NCBI GenBank assembly: GCA_963731035.1 | Contig: CAVSUY010000003.1 | Location: 49,012-113,011 of the forward strand | Direction of reading: 5' to 3' | Source: an uncultured Gammaproteobacteria bacterium | GTDB lineage: Bacteria; Pseudomonadota; Gammaproteobacteria; Arenicellales; JAANXG01 | DNA: 64,000 nucleotides | Shown here: piece by piece, positions 52,634-64,000 of the stretch | Layout of the letters: each line of letters starts with the position of its first letter | Position numbering within the stretch: position 1 is the stretch's first letter | Translations under genes and position numbers: made by a program | Notes under the pieces: generated by a model | Database searches by the model: none | Told to the model about the DNA's origin: nothing | The model's input: only the letters and a program-made list of their open reading frames with translations

Positions 52634-52689
52634 CGGAATCAACCACGCAGCGACGTGCTGCATTGATGACCATTTTAGGAGGTTTCCAA

Positions 52690-53148
52690 ATGAACCAGTT
52701 AGCTCGCACACCTGAAAGCGGCTCCCTGTGGGGCGCCCTCGATGACTTCGACAGCCTGTTCGACGATTTCTGGCGTCCGCTTGGCCGTGCTCGCCAGGGC
52801 GCCGGAAACGGTGGGGCCTTTGCTCCGGCCCTCGACGTCACCGAAACCGAGAGCGAGTACCGCGTGCGCGCGGACTTGCCGGGTATCAAGAAAGATGACC
52901 TGGACATCAGCATTCAGGACGGGGTGTTGACCATCAACGCCGAAACCAAATATGAAGACGAGGCGAAGAAGGAAGGCCGGCTCATCAGGCAGGAGCGCCG
53001 GTATGGGAAGTTCGTGCGGTCCATGCGCCTCGGCGACTCCGTGGACGTCAGCAAGGTGAAGGCCGAATACAAGGACGGAGTGTTGAGCCTGGTGCTGCCC
53101 AAGGCCGAGGAAGTCCGTCCGAAGCGCATAGACGTCAAGGTCGGCTGA
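52690..53148 (+). CDS. Hsp20/alpha-crystallin protein 1
   Basis: PALDV.E..ADLPG..ERRYGKFVRS..AEYKDGVL.L.LPK. Confidence 0.94.
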   Translation: MNQLARTPESGSLWGALDDFDSLFDDFWRPLGRARQGAGNGGAFAPALDVTETESEYRVRADLPGIKKDDLDISIQDGVLTINAETKYEDEAKKEGRLIRQERRYGKFVRSMRLGDSVDVSKVKAEYKDGVLSLVLPKAEEVRPKRIDVKVG

Positions 53149-53179
53149 ACACGGTCTGCGCTTTCGCGATCCAGCCAAG

Positions 53180-53207
53180 AAAAGGCCGCCTAAGGGCGGC
53201 CTTTTTT
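53180..53207 (+). terminator. Intrinsic terminator (possibly bidirectional)
   Basis: aaaaggccgcc-taag-ggcggcctttttt. Confidence 0.85.
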
Positions 53208-53255
53208 GTCGGCGGAGCGCCCGTTGGGGAACGGCGGCACCGCGACTGTGGAATG

Positions 53256-53269
53256 ATGACTCAGATCAA
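53256..53269 (+). promoter_or_regulatory. Putative FNR/Anr/Dnr box upstream of the second Hsp20
   Basis: ATGAC-TCAG-ATCAA against TTGAT-N4-ATCAA (8/10 match). Confidence 0.5.
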
Positions 53270-53424
53270 TGTCCGGTGCGCGGCGGCGTTGTATCTTGCG
53301 CTCGCATCAGCACCGGGTCGGTTCTTCCACCCCGCGACTTTGCCAGCCCGGGCTGGCGGAAAATCGTCCTTGGTTTCGATACAGCCCCGGCAGCGCATGG
53401 GCGGTAACCATTTGGAGGCTAGCA

Positions 53425-53868
53425 ATGAAAGACATTACCCAAAGCTCCGAGCGTCGGACCCCCAGGGGGTTGTTCGGCGACTTCGACGACATATTCGATG
53501 ACTTCTGGCGTCCCGTCCGGCGCGAAAACGGAGGCGCCTTCGCGCCCGCCGTGGACGTGAGGGAGTCCGACGCCGAGTATCGCATCCGCGCCGATCTCCC
53601 GGGTGTCGAGAAAGACGACCTCGACATCAGCCTGCAGGACGGCGTGCTTACCATCAACGCCGAGACCAGGCAGGAGAAGAAGGAAGAGAAGGAAGGCCGT
53701 GTCATTCGCCAGGAGCGCCGCTGCGGCAAGTTTGTCCGCTCCATGCGACTTGGCGACACCGTGGATGCCGACAAGATCAAGGCCGAATACAAGGACGGCG
53801 TGCTGGATCTGGTCCTGCCGAAGACCGAGAAGGTGAAGGTCAAGAAAATCGACGTCCAGGTCAAATAG
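53425..53868 (+). CDS. Hsp20/alpha-crystallin protein 2
   Basis: Paralog of the preceding gene; GGAGG RBS before the ATG at 53425. Confidence 0.94.
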   Translation: MKDITQSSERRTPRGLFGDFDDIFDDFWRPVRRENGGAFAPAVDVRESDAEYRIRADLPGVEKDDLDISLQDGVLTINAETRQEKKEEKEGRVIRQERRCGKFVRSMRLGDTVDADKIKAEYKDGVLDLVLPKTEKVKVKKIDVQVK

Positions 53869-58089: not shown

Positions 58090-58377
58090 CTACTCGTGGG
58101 CGATGGGCTTTTCGGTAAACAGATAGTCCCTCAATTGCTTGTCCAGCACCCCGTCCCGGCGCCGAATCCACTCCAGAACCATGGCGGCGTGCTCCTTTTC
58201 CTCGTCCCGATTATGGGCCAGTATGGCTGCGAGCTCCTTGTCCTTGCAGGCGTCGACGCGCTGGTTGTACCAGTCTATCGCTTCGAGCTCCTCCATCAGG
58301 GACGTGATGGCGCGATGCATGTCACGCGTTTCGTCGGACATCTCCTCGATCGGCTCGTGGTAGCCTTCGTTCGCCAT
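58090..58377 (-). CDS. Encapsulin-associated-type ferritin-like protein (EncFtn), 95 aa
   Basis: GYHEP..RDMHRAITSLMEELEAIDWYNQR..ILAHNRDEEKEHAAM.LEWIRR.D; GGAG RBS. Confidence 0.9.
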   Translation of the reverse strand: MANEGYHEPIEEMSDETRDMHRAITSLMEELEAIDWYNQRVDACKDKELAAILAHNRDEEKEHAAMVLEWIRRRDGVLDKQLRDYLFTEKPIAHE

Positions 58378-58553
58378 AGAAGTATCTCCAGGAAAATTGA
58401 CAGTATCGACGTATATTACGTGGGATTCAGTCGCGAATAAACGCCTGTTGAAATCCGGTTTTTGCATACTATCATTGAGCTTCGATCATTCAGGCGCCGC
58501 ACCGCAACGGGAGGCGGCACCGGACATTCATCATCGGAACGGGAGGACGAACC

Positions 58554-58781
58554 ATGTTGGACAAGCACGAACAATGGCGGGCGCTGTGCGATGAGCACGA
58601 GGTCGCCCGAGCCGGCTACTTCGCGAATTCACGCCTGCTGACGGACAAGTATGCGCGGGTGTTTCAGGGTGACCGGAACGCGGCGCCTACTGAGCAGGAG
58701 ATCGAGCGCGCCCGGGCAGCGCGTGAAAAATGGGAGGAGGTGAGACAACGCATGGATGATTTCGTGTTGCGAAACACCTAG
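58554..58781 (+). CDS. Hypothetical small helical protein (75 aa)
   Basis: Strong GGAGG RBS before the ATG; amphipathic helical sequence; no family recognised. Confidence 0.6.
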   Translation: MLDKHEQWRALCDEHEVARAGYFANSRLLTDKYARVFQGDRNAAPTEQEIERARAAREKWEEVRQRMDDFVLRNT

Positions 58782-58832
58782 CGGGGCCCGTCCGGTTCGC
58801 CATCGGCGTGAACTGAACGAGCAGGGGAGGGA

Positions 58833-59084
58833 GACGCGGCGTCCGCCTTTCGAACGGTGCTGTCCCTGGCCCCGACATCTTTGCTGGCACGCAACAACCT
58901 GCCCTACCTGCTTGCCCCGGGAGGGCTGCATGGACCAGGCTCTCGAGGAGACCGACGAGGCTTTGGACCAGGCCGGCGGCGAGAATGCCGACCTCAAGAA
59001 GACGCTGCTTCAGACGCGCTCCGAGATCGAGTCCCGGGAGCAGTCGGGTGCCGCGGCGTCCGGCTCCTGTCCCCGAAGGAAATC
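58833..59084 (+). pseudogene. Frameshifted C-terminal TPR gene remnant
   Basis: DAASAFRTVLSLAPTSLLARNNLPYLLA, then an extra C at about 58915-58918, then REGCMDQALEETDEAL; no convincing start. Confidence 0.55.
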
Positions 59085-59161
<77 letters not shown>

Positions 59162-59255: not shown

Positions 59256-59666
59256 TTACGGGCCGGAGACGCCGTCGCTGCAGCTGGCGCCCAGGTTCAG
59301 CGGGAGGGTGTACGAGTCGGTGATGGTGAATGGCCCGACTCCGCCACACTGGTAATAGATATCTCCCGAACAATTGGCCACCTTGACGGTCAGGGTCACC
59401 TGTACTGTGTTGTCCGTGACCAACTCGACGGTGACGCGGCTGCTTGTGACGTCGCAGCCGCCCCAAGTGCCTTGGTCGAAATTCGAAAAGTGGACCTCCG
59501 ATCCATCCCAGTCGTTCACATGGCCGATGCGTGCCGGCACGGGATAGGTGAGATAGGTATAGGGCATGTCGCCAAACCAGACGTCCAGCCTCGCCGTGCT
59601 GCCGCCTCCCACCGCACCATCGACGCAGACCTCGATGGACTGCTCAAAAGAGTAGTTGCACGCCAT
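59256..59666 (-). CDS. Hypothetical beta-rich protein with six Cys and no signal peptide
   Basis: 136-aa ORF with an AGGGGG RBS; Thr/Ser/Gly/Val-rich with strand-like patterns. Confidence 0.7.
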   Translation of the reverse strand: MACNYSFEQSIEVCVDGAVGGGSTARLDVWFGDMPYTYLTYPVPARIGHVNDWDGSEVHFSNFDQGTWGGCDVTSSRVTVELVTDNTVQVTLTVKVANCSGDIYYQCGGVGPFTITDSYTLPLNLGASCSDGVSGP

Positions 59667-59685
59667 TGTCGCTTACCCCCTTTGG

Positions 59686-59910
59686 CTAACTGTAGGCACC
59701 GACGATTCCAGCCACGGAAGCTCGCTGGGTGATCTGGAATCCCGACGTCTGTGCGTGAGCCGGCAAGGCGACAGCCTTGACGATCGGCTCGGACCAATGG
59801 GACAAGGTCACCCCGCCCACACCCACTGCCAGGCCCTTGACCACGCCTCGACGGCCGGTGCGCGGTCGCTTGTCCGATGTTTTGGTGGAAGAACTGCTCG
59901 AGTCGTTCAT
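59686..59910 (-). CDS. Twin-arginine 'LPAHAQTS' motif small protein (74 aa)
   Basis: GRRGVVKGLAVGVGG..WSEPIVKAVALPAHAQTS; GAGGGGG RBS upstream of the ATG at 59910. Confidence 0.8.
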   Translation of the reverse strand: MNDSSSSSTKTSDKRPRTGRRGVVKGLAVGVGGVTLSHWSEPIVKAVALPAHAQTSGFQITQRASVAGIVGAYS

Positions 59911-60032
59911 CTGTTGAACCCCCTCTGATGAGATGGCGGGCACCATTGGAAACCCCCTGCGTTGGTGTGCCCCTGTATGCGCCGGGGACCGCCCCGGACG
60001 TGCTTATGCAAGCTACTGGATTCCCTGTGTCC

Positions 60033-60060
60033 ATTATTGGGTTTTCCAGGACCAAGTCAA
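60033..60060 (-). promoter_or_regulatory. Putative sigma-70 promoter for the two small genes
   Basis: Minus strand TTGACT-N16-AATAAT in a high-GC background, overlapping the GT stop codon. Confidence 0.45.
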
Positions 60061-62510
60061 TTGAAAAAATGGCCCAGAGCGCGTATCCAGGATTGCCGGG
60101 TCTCATCCGCGTCGTGATGGGCGAGCACCTGCTCGAATTCCGCGGCCAGCCTTGCCCGGGCCTCCCGCGCGAGCCTCGGCAGGTCCGAGAACACCCGTTG
60201 CAGGGCCTCGATATCCACTCCCGCTTCTTGTCCGATACCGCCCTGCATCCACCGGAAAGCAGGCCGTGCCGGGCGAGGAGGCCCCGGCGGCACCAGGATT
60301 ATGCCTGGCAGATGACGCAATTCCGCATGGACGTGGGCATCGAGGAGAACGACCGGCTTGCCCAGGTGCAGCGCCTCGCGCGGGGTGACGGACCAGCCTT
60401 CTCCCGAGGACAGGAAACAGTAGACGTCGAGCCCGCTCATCCATTCGAGGTATTCCCCCCGGCTGAGGGACGCGACCCGCAGCTCGATATTGCCGCAGTC
60501 GAGGGCCGATTCGATCCGGCGGTGCTCTTCCTGGGCCTCCCGGTCCCGGGGCTCGGTGCGAGTGTGGATCCGAAGCCGGAAATCGGGGTGTCCGCCAAGG
60601 ACGGCCGCGAAGGCCTCCGCCGTCAACGCGAGGTTCTTGCGTGGCCACAGGCCAGCCGACATGCCGAGCGTCAATGGTTGTCCGGAGTCGTCGCCCCCGG
60701 CCACTGGCGGGCGAACCACGTACTCGTAGGGATGGGGCAGCTTAACGAAACGAACCTCGTGCTCCCGCAGGTAGTCTTCGAGCAGTGACGAGGTGATGAT
60801 GGTCAGATCATAGGCGCGGACGAGATCCAGCATTGGGTTCCACAGCCGGTCCGTCTCCCACATCAGGTAGACGGCGCAACAGGCGGCGAAACGCCCCCGC
60901 ATGTCGAGAACCCGGTCGATCTGCTCGCGGATCGACTTTTCACCGCCCGGCAAACCTACCACGTCCAGGTACAGACAGTTCTGGAACAGGTCTGGACGCT
61001 GCTCGTGTACATAGCTCGAGAGCCCGTCGTAGAGCTCGGGTGAATAGCTGGACACACGTTCGTCGAGACTCTTGTAGCGGATCCCGGACCCGTTGAAAAC
61101 CAGGCGATCCAGAAGACGCAGGTGGGCGCCGACCCCGTCACGGGGATAGTCCCAGCCGGAGTACACGATGCTCGAGAATCCGAGTTGCTCGCCGGCGTCG
61201 ATCGCCGCGCCAGGATCCGCCGTCGCCCGGGCGCGGCGCTCGGCGTCCTGGCGATAGCGCTCGCATTCACCGGGATCGAGACAATGCCCCGCCAGACGCT
61301 CGAACTCCTCGACGCCGCACTCCAGGGCCGACCGGGCGATCTCGATTATCGGTTGGAGTACCCTGGGCCAGGCATATCGTCGGCGCACGTCGGCGCCGGC
61401 AGTAACGAGCTTGTCGCGCTCCTCCGTCCAGTGGTCCACGGCATGACGCAACTTTGCGATCAGGTCCTCCTCGTCCACGGCACAGTATCGCCCGCACTGG
61501 TGATCGACGCGCGGCGCCCGTATGACGCCTCCGGGCCGCAGGCAAATGGAGTTGTCTCTGTCGAGGTAGTCCGCCATGCCTCCCGTCGCCGGCGCGATTA
61601 CCGGCGTCTCGCAGGCGATGGATTCGAGCGGCACGAGCCCGAAGCCCTCGCCTTTGGAGGGGTGGACGGTGCAATGCACCTCGGAATACACCCGCGCGGC
61701 ATCCCTCAGGCTCAGGGCCCCCGGCGGATCGAATTCCACCAGGCGGCCGTAGTCCGGCCAGCCTGGACAGGCGGGCAGCCAGCGACGGTCACCGATTCGT
61801 AGACGAAGGACGATGTCGTCCCGCCCCTCGAACGCGATCTGGAAGCAGCGTATCAATTCCCGGTAGCCCTTTCTCTCCGCTACCAGGTGACTGCGTAAGC
61901 TGTTGTAGAAGACGAAGCGCCCGTTCGGCCGCAATCCCTCGATCAGGCGATGCTGCGGATGCACGCCGTGCGGCACGACCATGACGGGGCTCGTGACCCC
62001 GGACCGCAGGAACGCCATCCTGCAGGAACGCGAGGGCACCACGATCAGGTGAAATCGATTGCAGGCTCGCACCCATTCCGGGAGGATCTGATCCGTCTCG
62101 CAGACACAGATCCCTATCCTGATGTCATGCGAAAAGAAGAAATCCGGCGCATGGGTGGGAAAGCCGAAAAATATCCCCACCCGCGCCCGCCGGTTGAGCC
62201 CGGTGAGATGTGACAGCACGGGATCGCTTGGTTCCGGACCGGCATAGTTGCACAGGGCAAGCTCCGTGATTTCATCTGCGAGAGCGTGCGCCAACGCACC
62301 GAATACGTTCGAATACGAATCGGTGCCCGCCAGGTAGCCATAAAGCTGAAGGCGGGCGTCCGGCCTGTGGCGGCCCCCAAAGGATATCTTTGGCGGTGCG
62401 TCGGGCGGACTGAAATTGAATTGGAAGTGTGCGCGGCGCACTTGTCCGAGAGTGTGGGCCCGCGTCCCGGGCTCAGCCGCGATCGTCGCGGCGGGCCTTG
62501 CCGGTCGCAT
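60057..62510 (-). CDS. Glycosyltransferase with two tandem GT4 (GT-B) modules
   Basis: Two EX7E motifs (EGFGLVPLE, EGWSVTPRE); N-lobes with VCETD and MWETD; start uncertain. Confidence 0.85.
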   Translation of the reverse strand: MRPARPAATIAAEPGTRAHTLGQVRRAHFQFNFSPPDAPPKISFGGRHRPDARLQLYGYLAGTDSYSNVFGALAHALADEITELALCNYAGPEPSDPVLSHLTGLNRRARVGIFFGFPTHAPDFFFSHDIRIGICVCETDQILPEWVRACNRFHLIVVPSRSCRMAFLRSGVTSPVMVVPHGVHPQHRLIEGLRPNGRFVFYNSLRSHLVAERKGYRELIRCFQIAFEGRDDIVLRLRIGDRRWLPACPGWPDYGRLVEFDPPGALSLRDAARVYSEVHCTVHPSKGEGFGLVPLESIACETPVIAPATGGMADYLDRDNSICLRPGGVIRAPRVDHQCGRYCAVDEEDLIAKLRHAVDHWTEERDKLVTAGADVRRRYAWPRVLQPIIEIARSALECGVEEFERLAGHCLDPGECERYRQDAERRARATADPGAAIDAGEQLGFSSIVYSGWDYPRDGVGAHLRLLDRLVFNGSGIRYKSLDERVSSYSPELYDGLSSYVHEQRPDLFQNCLYLDVVGLPGGEKSIREQIDRVLDMRGRFAACCAVYLMWETDRLWNPMLDLVRAYDLTIITSSLLEDYLREHEVRFVKLPHPYEYVVRPPVAGGDDSGQPLTLGMSAGLWPRKNLALTAEAFAAVLGGHPDFRLRIHTRTEPRDREAQEEHRRIESALDCGNIELRVASLSRGEYLEWMSGLDVYCFLSSGEGWSVTPREALHLGKPVVLLDAHVHAELRHLPGIILVPPGPPRPARPAFRWMQGGIGQEAGVDIEALQRVFSDLPRLAREARARLAAEFEQVLAHHDADETRQSWIRALGHFFN

Positions 62511-62805
62511 CTGCGGGGGGCGATAGGGCCGGCCATTTTCCCTCGGGGCACGCGAATCCCGCGTACCAGGTTTTGATGCCCATGGCGCAGAGGCAGCGAC
62601 GGCATTGGGTGGTTACGGGAACGAACTCCTCGCAGTCCTGGCAAATGGCATAGCGCTCCCACTTGACTTCTCTCGGAACCCGCCAGAACTTCTCGTTCAA
62701 GCGCCGCCAGCGTGCCTTGCCCACCTTGATCCAGGCGGTCCACGCCCATTGCGTTTCGCGCTGATCCGGCTGTGAGTCGTCAGGTTCGTGTTGGAACTCG
62801 TTCAT
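62473..62805 (-). CDS. Small Cys-rich protein, DUF6171-like
   Basis: R..ICxxC..QCxxCxCxMxxK..CPxxKW pattern; family name is from recall. Confidence 0.7.
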   Translation of the reverse strand: MNEFQHEPDDSQPDQRETQWAWTAWIKVGKARWRRLNEKFWRVPREVKWERYAICQDCEEFVPVTTQCRRCLCAMGIKTWYAGFACPEGKWPALSPPADATGKARRDDRG

Positions 62806-62886
62806 GCCCTGCTCATGGGAATGCTGCCCCGCCCGGCCCGGTGCGGCCGGGGAATTGGTATAGAATCATCCGCTGTGGCTAACCCA

Positions 62887-64000
62887 ATGGATTCCTGCTC
62901 GCTCAGGGTGTTTGAAGCGGGAATCTGGCTCTTTTATCACAACTCACCATGGCCCGCTATCTTGATTGACTCCTCCACCGTCGTGCGTCCGAGATTGCAC
63001 GTATTCACGATGGCAAACGAGCGCCATGGCGGATTCCTGAGCTCATGCGGGCTGATGAGACGCCTGCAGTCGCACTTCCACGTCGATGCCTGGCCGCTAA
63101 CCGGCGCGACACCCGACGAGAATGCCACCGCGCTGCGCGAAGCAGCGGACGAGGTCCACTTGGACGGTGGCGTCCCTGCCTGCGACATCCGCGGCCACGT
63201 CCTCTTCTACATGAACGACTATCCACCGCTGTTCAGCAACTTTTCCCGGCAGTGGCAGCGGGCGCTCCGGGATGCGGCCAGTGTACAGATCGCGTTCAAC
63301 CGGACTCTGGGCAGCCTGCCCCGTGAACACTGGCTCGCACGGCAAGTCACCCGGATCTATTTTCATGATTCGTGGATGGGTGAATCCTGGCGCTTTTTGA
63401 CCAATGAGTCACCGCTGGCAGACATACCGGCCGAGGTGTTGGCGCCGCCCGCCGATCTCACACGTTTCCTGCGCATCTCCGCGCCGCGGTCCGGGCCCGT
63501 GGTGGTTGGCCGCTTCGCCGGTGATGCCAGCGTTCCGCGCAACGCCGTCGAACTCTACCGGCAGCTCTCCGACAACGTGCCGGAGGCCGAGTGGTGGTTT
63601 ATGCCGGCGCCTGCCGCGCTGGAAGAGGTATTCGGCGGCGACCGTCGATTCCGATTTTTTGCCCGGAACGCCATGGACCCCGTCGAGTTTCTTTCATCCT
63701 GCCACATCGCCGCACTGACCTATTGGGCCGGCGTCCCGGTGCCCGGGCCGCGCTCGCTGATGGAGGCCATGGCGGCGGGCTGTGCGCCGGTGGTGATCGA
63801 CCGCGAGGGACCGCGCGACCGGGTCATTCACGGGGAGTCAGGGTTCCGGACCAATGACGACCTGGAGTTCATCGACTACATCGCGAGGTTGGCGCGGGAT
63901 CCGGTGCTGCGCGATCGTATCGCCGCGGGTGCCAGGGAACGGGCGCGGCGGTGGGGTCCGGATGTATGGGTAGAGCGGATCGTGGCAAACAGCCTCGGGC
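62887..64000 (+). CDS. GT4-like glycosyltransferase (3' end outside the window; absent from the ORF track)
   Basis: Manual translation: open from ATG 62887 (or TTG 62962 / GTG 62983) to the window end; VVGR..PGPRSLMEAMAAGCAPVV..GPRDRVIHGESGF..LARDPVLRDRIAAGARERA. Confidence 0.82.
   Translation, partial: MDSCSLRVFEAGIWLFYHNSPWPAILIDSSTVVRPRLHVFTMANERHGGFLSSCGLMRRLQSHFHVDAWPLTGATPDENATALREAADEVHLDGGVPACDIRGHVLFYMNDYPPLFSNFSRQWQRALRDAASVQIAFNRTLGSLPREHWLARQVTRIYFHDSWMGESWRFLTNESPLADIPAEVLAPPADLTRFLRISAPRSGPVVVGRFAGDASVPRNAVELYRQLSDNVPEAEWWFMPAPAALEEVFGGDRRFRFFARNAMDPVEFLSSCHIAALTYWAGVPVPGPRSLMEAMAAGCAPVVIDREGPRDRVIHGESGFRTNDDLEFIDYIARLARDPVLRDRIAAGARERARRWGPDVWVERIVANSLG

Follow-up and report, generated by a model that had tools for sequence, protein, structure and literature searches.

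A short twin-arginine precursor gene with a separate signal-less partner gene in Arenicellales as a candidate Tat hitchhiker pair

Hitchhiker export by the Tat (twin-arginine translocation) route is known from E. coli HybO/HybC and PaoABC, where the known carriers are redox-enzyme subunits that are folded and bear a cofactor (PMC4273604; PMC13673990). The locus described here lies in a 64,000-nt stretch of DNA from an uncultured gammaproteobacterium of the order Arenicellales (hereafter, the window) and resembles these systems in that one product bears a twin-arginine signal and the partner encoded by a neighbouring gene has no export signal. It differs from them in having a mature carrier of 13–32 residues, a partner without a recognisable cofactor motif and a complex that is putative. 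RRE-dependent RiPP precursors (lasso peptides, PQQ, linear polyphosphorylated peptides) provide a second point of comparison, W/YxxP being an established RRE recognition sequence (PMC12710340; PMC13381572). Shared with these precursors are a WxxPx[V/I] leader, a variable core, modifying enzymes and an RRE beside several paralogues; by contrast, the motif here is located inside a twin-arginine signal, most members of the family are 90–170-aa proteins, and this locus showed neither an RRE nor a dedicated protease or transporter. The terms ‘Tat’ and ‘twin-arginine’ are absent from the main text of PMC13381572. A literature search of incomplete coverage, with subscription papers mostly outside it, returned no description of the leader family, of peptide-sized carriers or of a peptide core carrying a signal-less partner via Tat.

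The putative carrier gene occupies positions 59686..59910 on the minus strand and encodes 74 aa plus a stop codon, as supported by its translation and by orthologues; the first-pass annotation had quoted this protein without a strand, and it was found reading from 59910 to 59686. An alternative in-frame ATG at 59946 would give 86 aa, and a G-run precedes both ATGs; the start at 59910 was favoured because the orthologue in genome G003 has the same 19 residues ahead of its RR. All the previously reported features were seen in the translation: a 53-aa leader (59752..59910, minus strand) with RR (59853–59848), a Gly-rich h-region, WxxPxV (59796–59779) and LPAHA, followed by a 21-aa core (59689..59751, minus strand) with an N-terminal Gln, five Ser/Thr and no Cys, which is the proposed donor β-strand. 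Leader landmarks in alignment positions are R20-R21, W39-x-x-P42-x-V44 and AHA ending at A53, the predicted cleavage site being placed from the AxA motif. Tat features of the carrier comprise G-RR-GVVK, the h-region and the AxA site; its TIGR01409 score was 12.3 bits (cut-off 16.7), and five of 15 relatives scored passed this model. With a permissive window, RR was present in 10/10 carriers, 64/67 representatives and 49/49 genome paralogues long enough to score. A search for the Tat translocase, which covered TatC, detected this component in the genome (E = 2.5e-66).

Among 28 aligned short forms, W39 and P42 were invariant, which bore out the expectation of a conserved leader with a variable core. 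The cores contained no Cys (10/10), carried almost no charge, had a high content of Thr, Gly, Ser and Ala (29% Thr+Ser), and often ended in hydrophobic residues with Phe. No Pfam or NCBIfam family was found for the carrier or for its partner, and for the carrier ESM Atlas gave nothing but unnamed clusters. Sublancin-type glycocins combine a Cys-containing core and a double-glycine leader with a C39-ABC exporter and a GT2 peptide glycosyltransferase; a glycocin identity was rejected on the Cys-free cores, the AxA site and a scan of the cluster proteins that turned up no C39-ABC exporter.

The partner gene (59256..59666, minus strand) starts 19 bases downstream of the carrier and is preceded by a purine-rich ribosome-binding site (59676..59683, minus strand). 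Its product of 136 aa has six Cys, seven predicted β-strands and no signal. A TAA stands in the partner frame three codons ahead of the ATG, so a single frameshift cannot fuse the two genes. Orthologous loci likewise retain the stop, the spacer and a separate ATG, with gaps of 13–128 nt in all three phases, and both ORFs were free of indels and base changes in the sequencing runs compared (two of DNA, two of RNA). The 74-aa ORF is thus a genuine, conserved gene and no truncation; the outcome raised earlier as potentially fatal, homologues that are all long together with a premature stop in this copy, was not what was found, since the short form itself is conserved.

This partner type was detected in seven of 243 genomes of the order, distributed over three families, and among 400 genomes drawn from the class its profile matched the window's own genome and none of the 399 others, one further genome being unscored; metagenome contigs yielded one identical locus and one chance match. 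An RR gene touches the partner in 7/7 genomes having this partner type. A leader gene with a 22–32-aa core precedes the partner in G003, G053 and G493, and twice in G503, and cores of orthologues across the three families were 21–32 residues long. None of 21 partner-family rows (some of them near-duplicates) showed RR in the first 35 residues, and none had more than one K/R among its first ten; one partner frame in G054 has a possible upstream hydrophobic extension, which is absent from the G466 orthologue. In total, 17 one-to-one carrier-partner pairs were tabulated, with gaps of 10–128 nt (n = 16 measured pairs, one G503 gap being outside the count). The partners carry widely spaced, mostly even-numbered Cys and are acidic and Ser/Thr-rich, as is typical of exported proteins.

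A second class of pairs, found via GT4 glycosyltransferases, consisted of 14–19-aa cores with signal-less proteins of 83–97 aa in G000 contig 18, G039, G461 and G027; no leader was seen at the GT4 locus of G500. The pair on G000 contig 18 (L042, 2363-5866) is the second carrier-partner pair of the same genome as the window, and the GT4 halves there are separate convergent genes. Pairing was also followed in a fresh set of leader matches, comprising 20 of 30 loci (ten best matches were skipped as already known or refetched wider) and 18 fetched regions. Seven of nine cores of up to 30 aa were followed by a signal-less ORF of 85–127 aa with 2–4 Cys, the two misses being one Gly/Ser repeat and one frameshifted long form; seven cores of 38–53 aa, mostly Thr/Pro/Ser-rich, came without such a partner. 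The new element is the non-repetitive short core followed by a separate, signal-less, Cys-bracketed β-protein. Mucin-like Thr/Pro/Ser repeat cores of 38–53 aa with the same leader and no partner gene were noted at L101, L104, L105, L113 and G000 C6:5910.

Copy numbers of the two genes appeared to correspond. G503 encodes two of each; in G054 and G466, a single plain Tat gene, unrelated to the other carriers and with a mature part of 57 aa, is flanked by two partners and passes TIGR01409. A weak pattern of 13 residues was common to six single-partner cores (p about 0.03), and the mature part of the plain carriers in G054 and G466 held two matches to it, 16–17 residues apart (shuffle p = 0.001 and 0.012, calculated post hoc in genomes of the same genus, with regex patterns selected after inspection). 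A direct self-repeat test in these double carriers was not significant (p = 0.10 and 0.37). Core length correlated with partner length (rho = 0.76, n = 17; rho = 0.75, n = 14 without near-duplicates), a relationship confounded by kinship within two or three clades. The mature part of the plain carriers (L010 9352-9603, L022 1001-1252) opens with a brief hydrophobic stretch whose last residues are LLDE, followed by two strand-like repeats.

That the leader motif recurs in many bacterial proteins had been put forward earlier, and this held: the RR/WxxPxV/LPAHA leader gave 56 profile matches in the genome (55 after removal of one remnant), and of 243 genomes from the order, 92 gave a match to the short-form profile. 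The median core of the genome's leader genes was ~138 aa, with passengers mostly ~140 aa, and cores of up to 30 aa were present in 34 of 70 representative matches (one match being spurious and some possibly fragments). Taxonomically named homologues were Arenicellales, and sequencing runs holding the locus were mostly salt-marsh metagenomes. Because it mostly heads proteins of 90–170 aa, the leader is a shared secretome tag and not a RiPP-specific leader; the first-pass interpretation as a RiPP-like precursor is partly supported. Among cores of up to 44 aa in G000, a partner was present in two of nine, the others being frameshifts, remnants, repeats or unexplained; the short-core paralogues C7:3283 and C7:181046 are frameshifted long forms.

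Leader genes lay close to putative modifying enzymes: 25 of 55 were within 3 kb of a GT2, GT4, JmjC, TTL or PqqD match, compared with 8.3 when positions were drawn at random on those contigs, for enzyme families picked after viewing the neighbours and with TTL and PqqD singly not significant. Five of six JmjC matches in the genome, and two of three TTL-like ATP-grasp matches, were within 3 kb of a leader gene; sites in G000 are C7:37263, C13:21247, C12:70106, C7:224745 and C22:8097. Three of seven PqqD genome matches lay within 60 bp of a leader ORF, as did two weaker RRE-like domains. Neither Pfam PqqD nor a genome-built profile detected an RRE in the module (window GT4s, partner and Cys-rich protein), from which a divergent RRE could escape, and the nearest RRE match was ~16 kb away, beside another leader gene. 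The proposal that WxxPxV acts as an enzyme-recognition tag is supported at the level of the family, by the known W/YxxP sequence, the adjacent PqqD matches and the enzyme enrichment, and not at this locus, where no RRE was found.

Upstream of the pair, the window encodes a double-domain GT4 of 817 aa (60057..62510, minus strand), homologues of which flank most carrier-partner pairs, a Cys-rich protein of 110 aa (62473..62805, minus strand) and a second GT4 that runs off the window and has an uncertain start (62788..63999, plus strand). A homologue of a window GT4 was found beside six of seven pairs detected via the leader, and none was present in the 6 kb examined at the G500 pair. The Cys-rich protein was present in 7/7 genomes with this partner type, one orthologue matching DUF6171 below the cut-off; three weaker homologues had no carrier-partner pair in the 3-kb loci examined. 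Beyond the window follow a GT2, a 2OG-Fe oxygenase, two C-methyltransferases, an epimerase and a glucose-1-phosphate cytidylyltransferase-like gene, and much of this enzyme block recurs in G003, G054, G466 and G493. Judged from these enzyme families, the block may produce a C-methylated nucleotide sugar and glycosylate protein; alternatively, the sugar genes may contribute to a surface polysaccharide. In serine-rich adhesins, GtfA/GtfB carry out GT4-type O-glycosylation of protein in the cytoplasm before export. The present loci are similar in encoding a GT4 beside a Ser/Thr-rich, putatively secreted substrate with a specialised signal, and dissimilar in the Tat-type signal, the lack of accessory Sec genes in the loci examined and the small β-protein in place of a long repeat adhesin.

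RNA contigs spanning both ORFs were recovered from four metatranscriptomes of four studies, with ends at 60003 or 60013, and a sigma-70-like promoter match (10 of 12) is located upstream of the two-gene unit (60033..60060, minus strand). This gives a weak hint of a two-gene transcript, from contigs whose strand and ends were not readable and from runs located using this very stretch. No RNA covered 60020-61222 in the four runs, which on its own is not evidence, since it was the covered stretch that served to find the runs.

The structure model of the partner (pLDDT 84, pTM 0.79) had seven strands. Its fold matches were weak (Z 3.5–5.0) and included Alt a 1-like and avidin-like barrels; the best (Z 5.0, rmsd 3.9, 102 aligned residues) was at the level of a common arrangement. 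A PDB sequence search with the partner profile gave nothing below E = 0.29, and ESM Atlas gave a TM score of 0.53 at best. In the model of a long paralogue, based on a five-row alignment, residues 1–38 were unplaced (pLDDT about 40), and the domain after a second AxA-type motif had seven strands and matched eight-stranded barrels (Z 6–7.8). Streptavidin could be aligned only from residue 25–26 on, both to the partner model (Z 3.5, rmsd 4.6, 98 aligned) and to the long-paralogue model (Z 6.9, rmsd 2.8, 81 aligned), and we take this to leave out its first strand. Small eight-stranded β-barrels (avidin/streptavidin, hemophilin/TbpB barrels, Alt a 1-like) are thus the top fold matches for both, at common-arrangement scores and with identities of 3–20%, so that function is not transferable.

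A second AxA-type motif occurred within the first 70 residues of 13 of 45 long paralogues, compared with 0.36 expected in shuffles, and a hydrophobic-x-G-[TNDS]-aromatic-like segment preceded it in nine of 19. The motif resembles a signal-peptidase site and could be an internal processing site. In long paralogues (e.g. L046 4334-4729, minus strand) its end lies 31–46 residues inside the mature part, and in most cases a strand containing Cys comes next. Homology was not detectable among the three partner size classes or between them and the long-paralogue domains (hhalign probability <3%); describing the pair as a split form of a fused protein is therefore an analogy only. The mature part of a long paralogue had no relatives in 19 other genomes of the family.

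Taken together, we give about an even chance to the reading that the 21-residue core completes the 136-aa partner as its missing β-strand and that the pair leaves by Tat as a hitchhiker complex, probably glycosylated by the adjacent GT4. The core would bind the partner in the cytoplasm by strand complementation; the GT4 enzymes would glycosylate one or both chains, perhaps with a C-methylated CDP-sugar and with WxxPxV as a docking tag for modification; Tat would move the complex out, signal peptidase would cut after AHA, and the Cys residues of the partner would oxidise to disulfides after export. The product outside the cell would most likely be a surface or secreted small β-barrel glycoprotein. 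Previously it had been argued that a 21-mer would need Tat only if modified or partner-bound, and the second option is now the better supported, by the dedicated signal-less partner gene downstream. Chaperone-usher pili are assembled by donor-strand complementation, in which a short β-strand from one chain completes an incomplete β-fold of another, as is proposed here; in the present case, no evidence of an Ig-fold, usher or chaperone was found, the route would be Tat, and a gene of its own encodes the putative strand.

If correct, a peptide of 13–32 residues suffices to carry a separate protein through Tat, which would make it the smallest natural hitchhiker carrier we found described and would explain export of signal-less Cys-rich proteins that localisation predictors miss. 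It would also tie RiPP-style leader recognition and cytoplasmic glycosylation to Tat quality control in an unannotated family present in 92 of 243 genomes from this order, and the small two-gene unit might serve as a compact tag for folded-protein export. More tentatively, and with the balance somewhat against it, the pair may be viewed as an Arenicellales export adaptor, in which a Tat leader plus one strand would complete a separate barrel so that only the assembled, glycosylated protein passes; the same leader, on being read by RRE domains, would direct a secretome of ~55 proteins to modification in the cytoplasm, and the long members that have a second AxA motif would be fused versions able to cleave themselves.

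The main rival, which we consider unlikely, is a glyco-RiPP precursor: the GT4s would decorate core Ser/Thr, Tat would export the free glycopeptide, and the partner would stay inside as a chaperone, adaptor or immunity protein. It is consistent with the WxxP motif as an RRE recognition sequence (PMC12710340; PMC13381572), the conserved leader and variable core, the Thr+Ser content and the co-occurrence of GT4 and sugar-synthesis genes, and such a core might be served in trans by discrete RREs encoded at other sites of the genome. Against this, Ser/Thr positions past QT[ST] are not conserved, the carriers of G054 and G466 lack WxxP and still have partner and GT4, the genome-built profile found no RRE in the window GT4s, partner or Cys-rich protein, and the Cys spacing and acidic, Ser/Thr-rich composition of the partner are those of exported proteins.

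Quite unlikely is a core acting as a self-assembling β-strand subunit of a fibre or amyloid-like surface material; on this view the partner, whether exported along with it or not, would be the core's dedicated chaperone or its cap. One carrier strand per partner, as the copy numbers suggest, and a core length that follows partner length speak against it; the uncharged, Gly/Thr/Ala-rich cores, often with a hydrophobic end and Phe, would suit such a subunit, as would recovery of the two-gene unit, and not of the next 1.2 kb upstream, in four metatranscriptomes, although contig depth is unable to show high expression. We consider it about as unlikely that the leader is an uncleaved anchor, of the kind known from Rieske subunits (PMC13673990): the c-region is indeed long (29–35 residues from RR to the site) and unusually conserved, but AHA followed by QT[ST] is near-invariant, as expected for a signal peptidase site, and the h-region is mildly hydrophobic (best 11-residue mean 1.4–2.2). 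The reading that a premature stop or frameshift has split a long Tat substrate, leaving the partner as its detached C-terminal part, was suggested by the ~138-aa median core and the two frameshifted paralogues, and was rejected as having next to no probability, being contradicted by the conserved two-gene layout, the TAA that blocks joining by one frameshift and the unaltered ORFs in the sequencing runs.

Downstream, the module is bordered by a tRNA-Arg(CCG) gene (59085..59161, minus strand), also present in G003. A search for Slam (PF04575) gave no match in the genome, and none in the controls either. Positions 58686-59073 of the window hold a C-terminal remnant (residues 253–370) of a C39-peptidase/TPR protein, which G003 has intact at the corresponding position and which has no other copy in the genome. 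An encapsulin-associated ferritin-like gene (58090-58467, minus strand; TIGR04535 above cut-off) was found with no encapsulin recognised adjacent to it. Two tandem genes at 52663-53868, which we take to be small heat-shock-like and to follow hslVU-like genes, had RNA-contig cover in each of the four runs.
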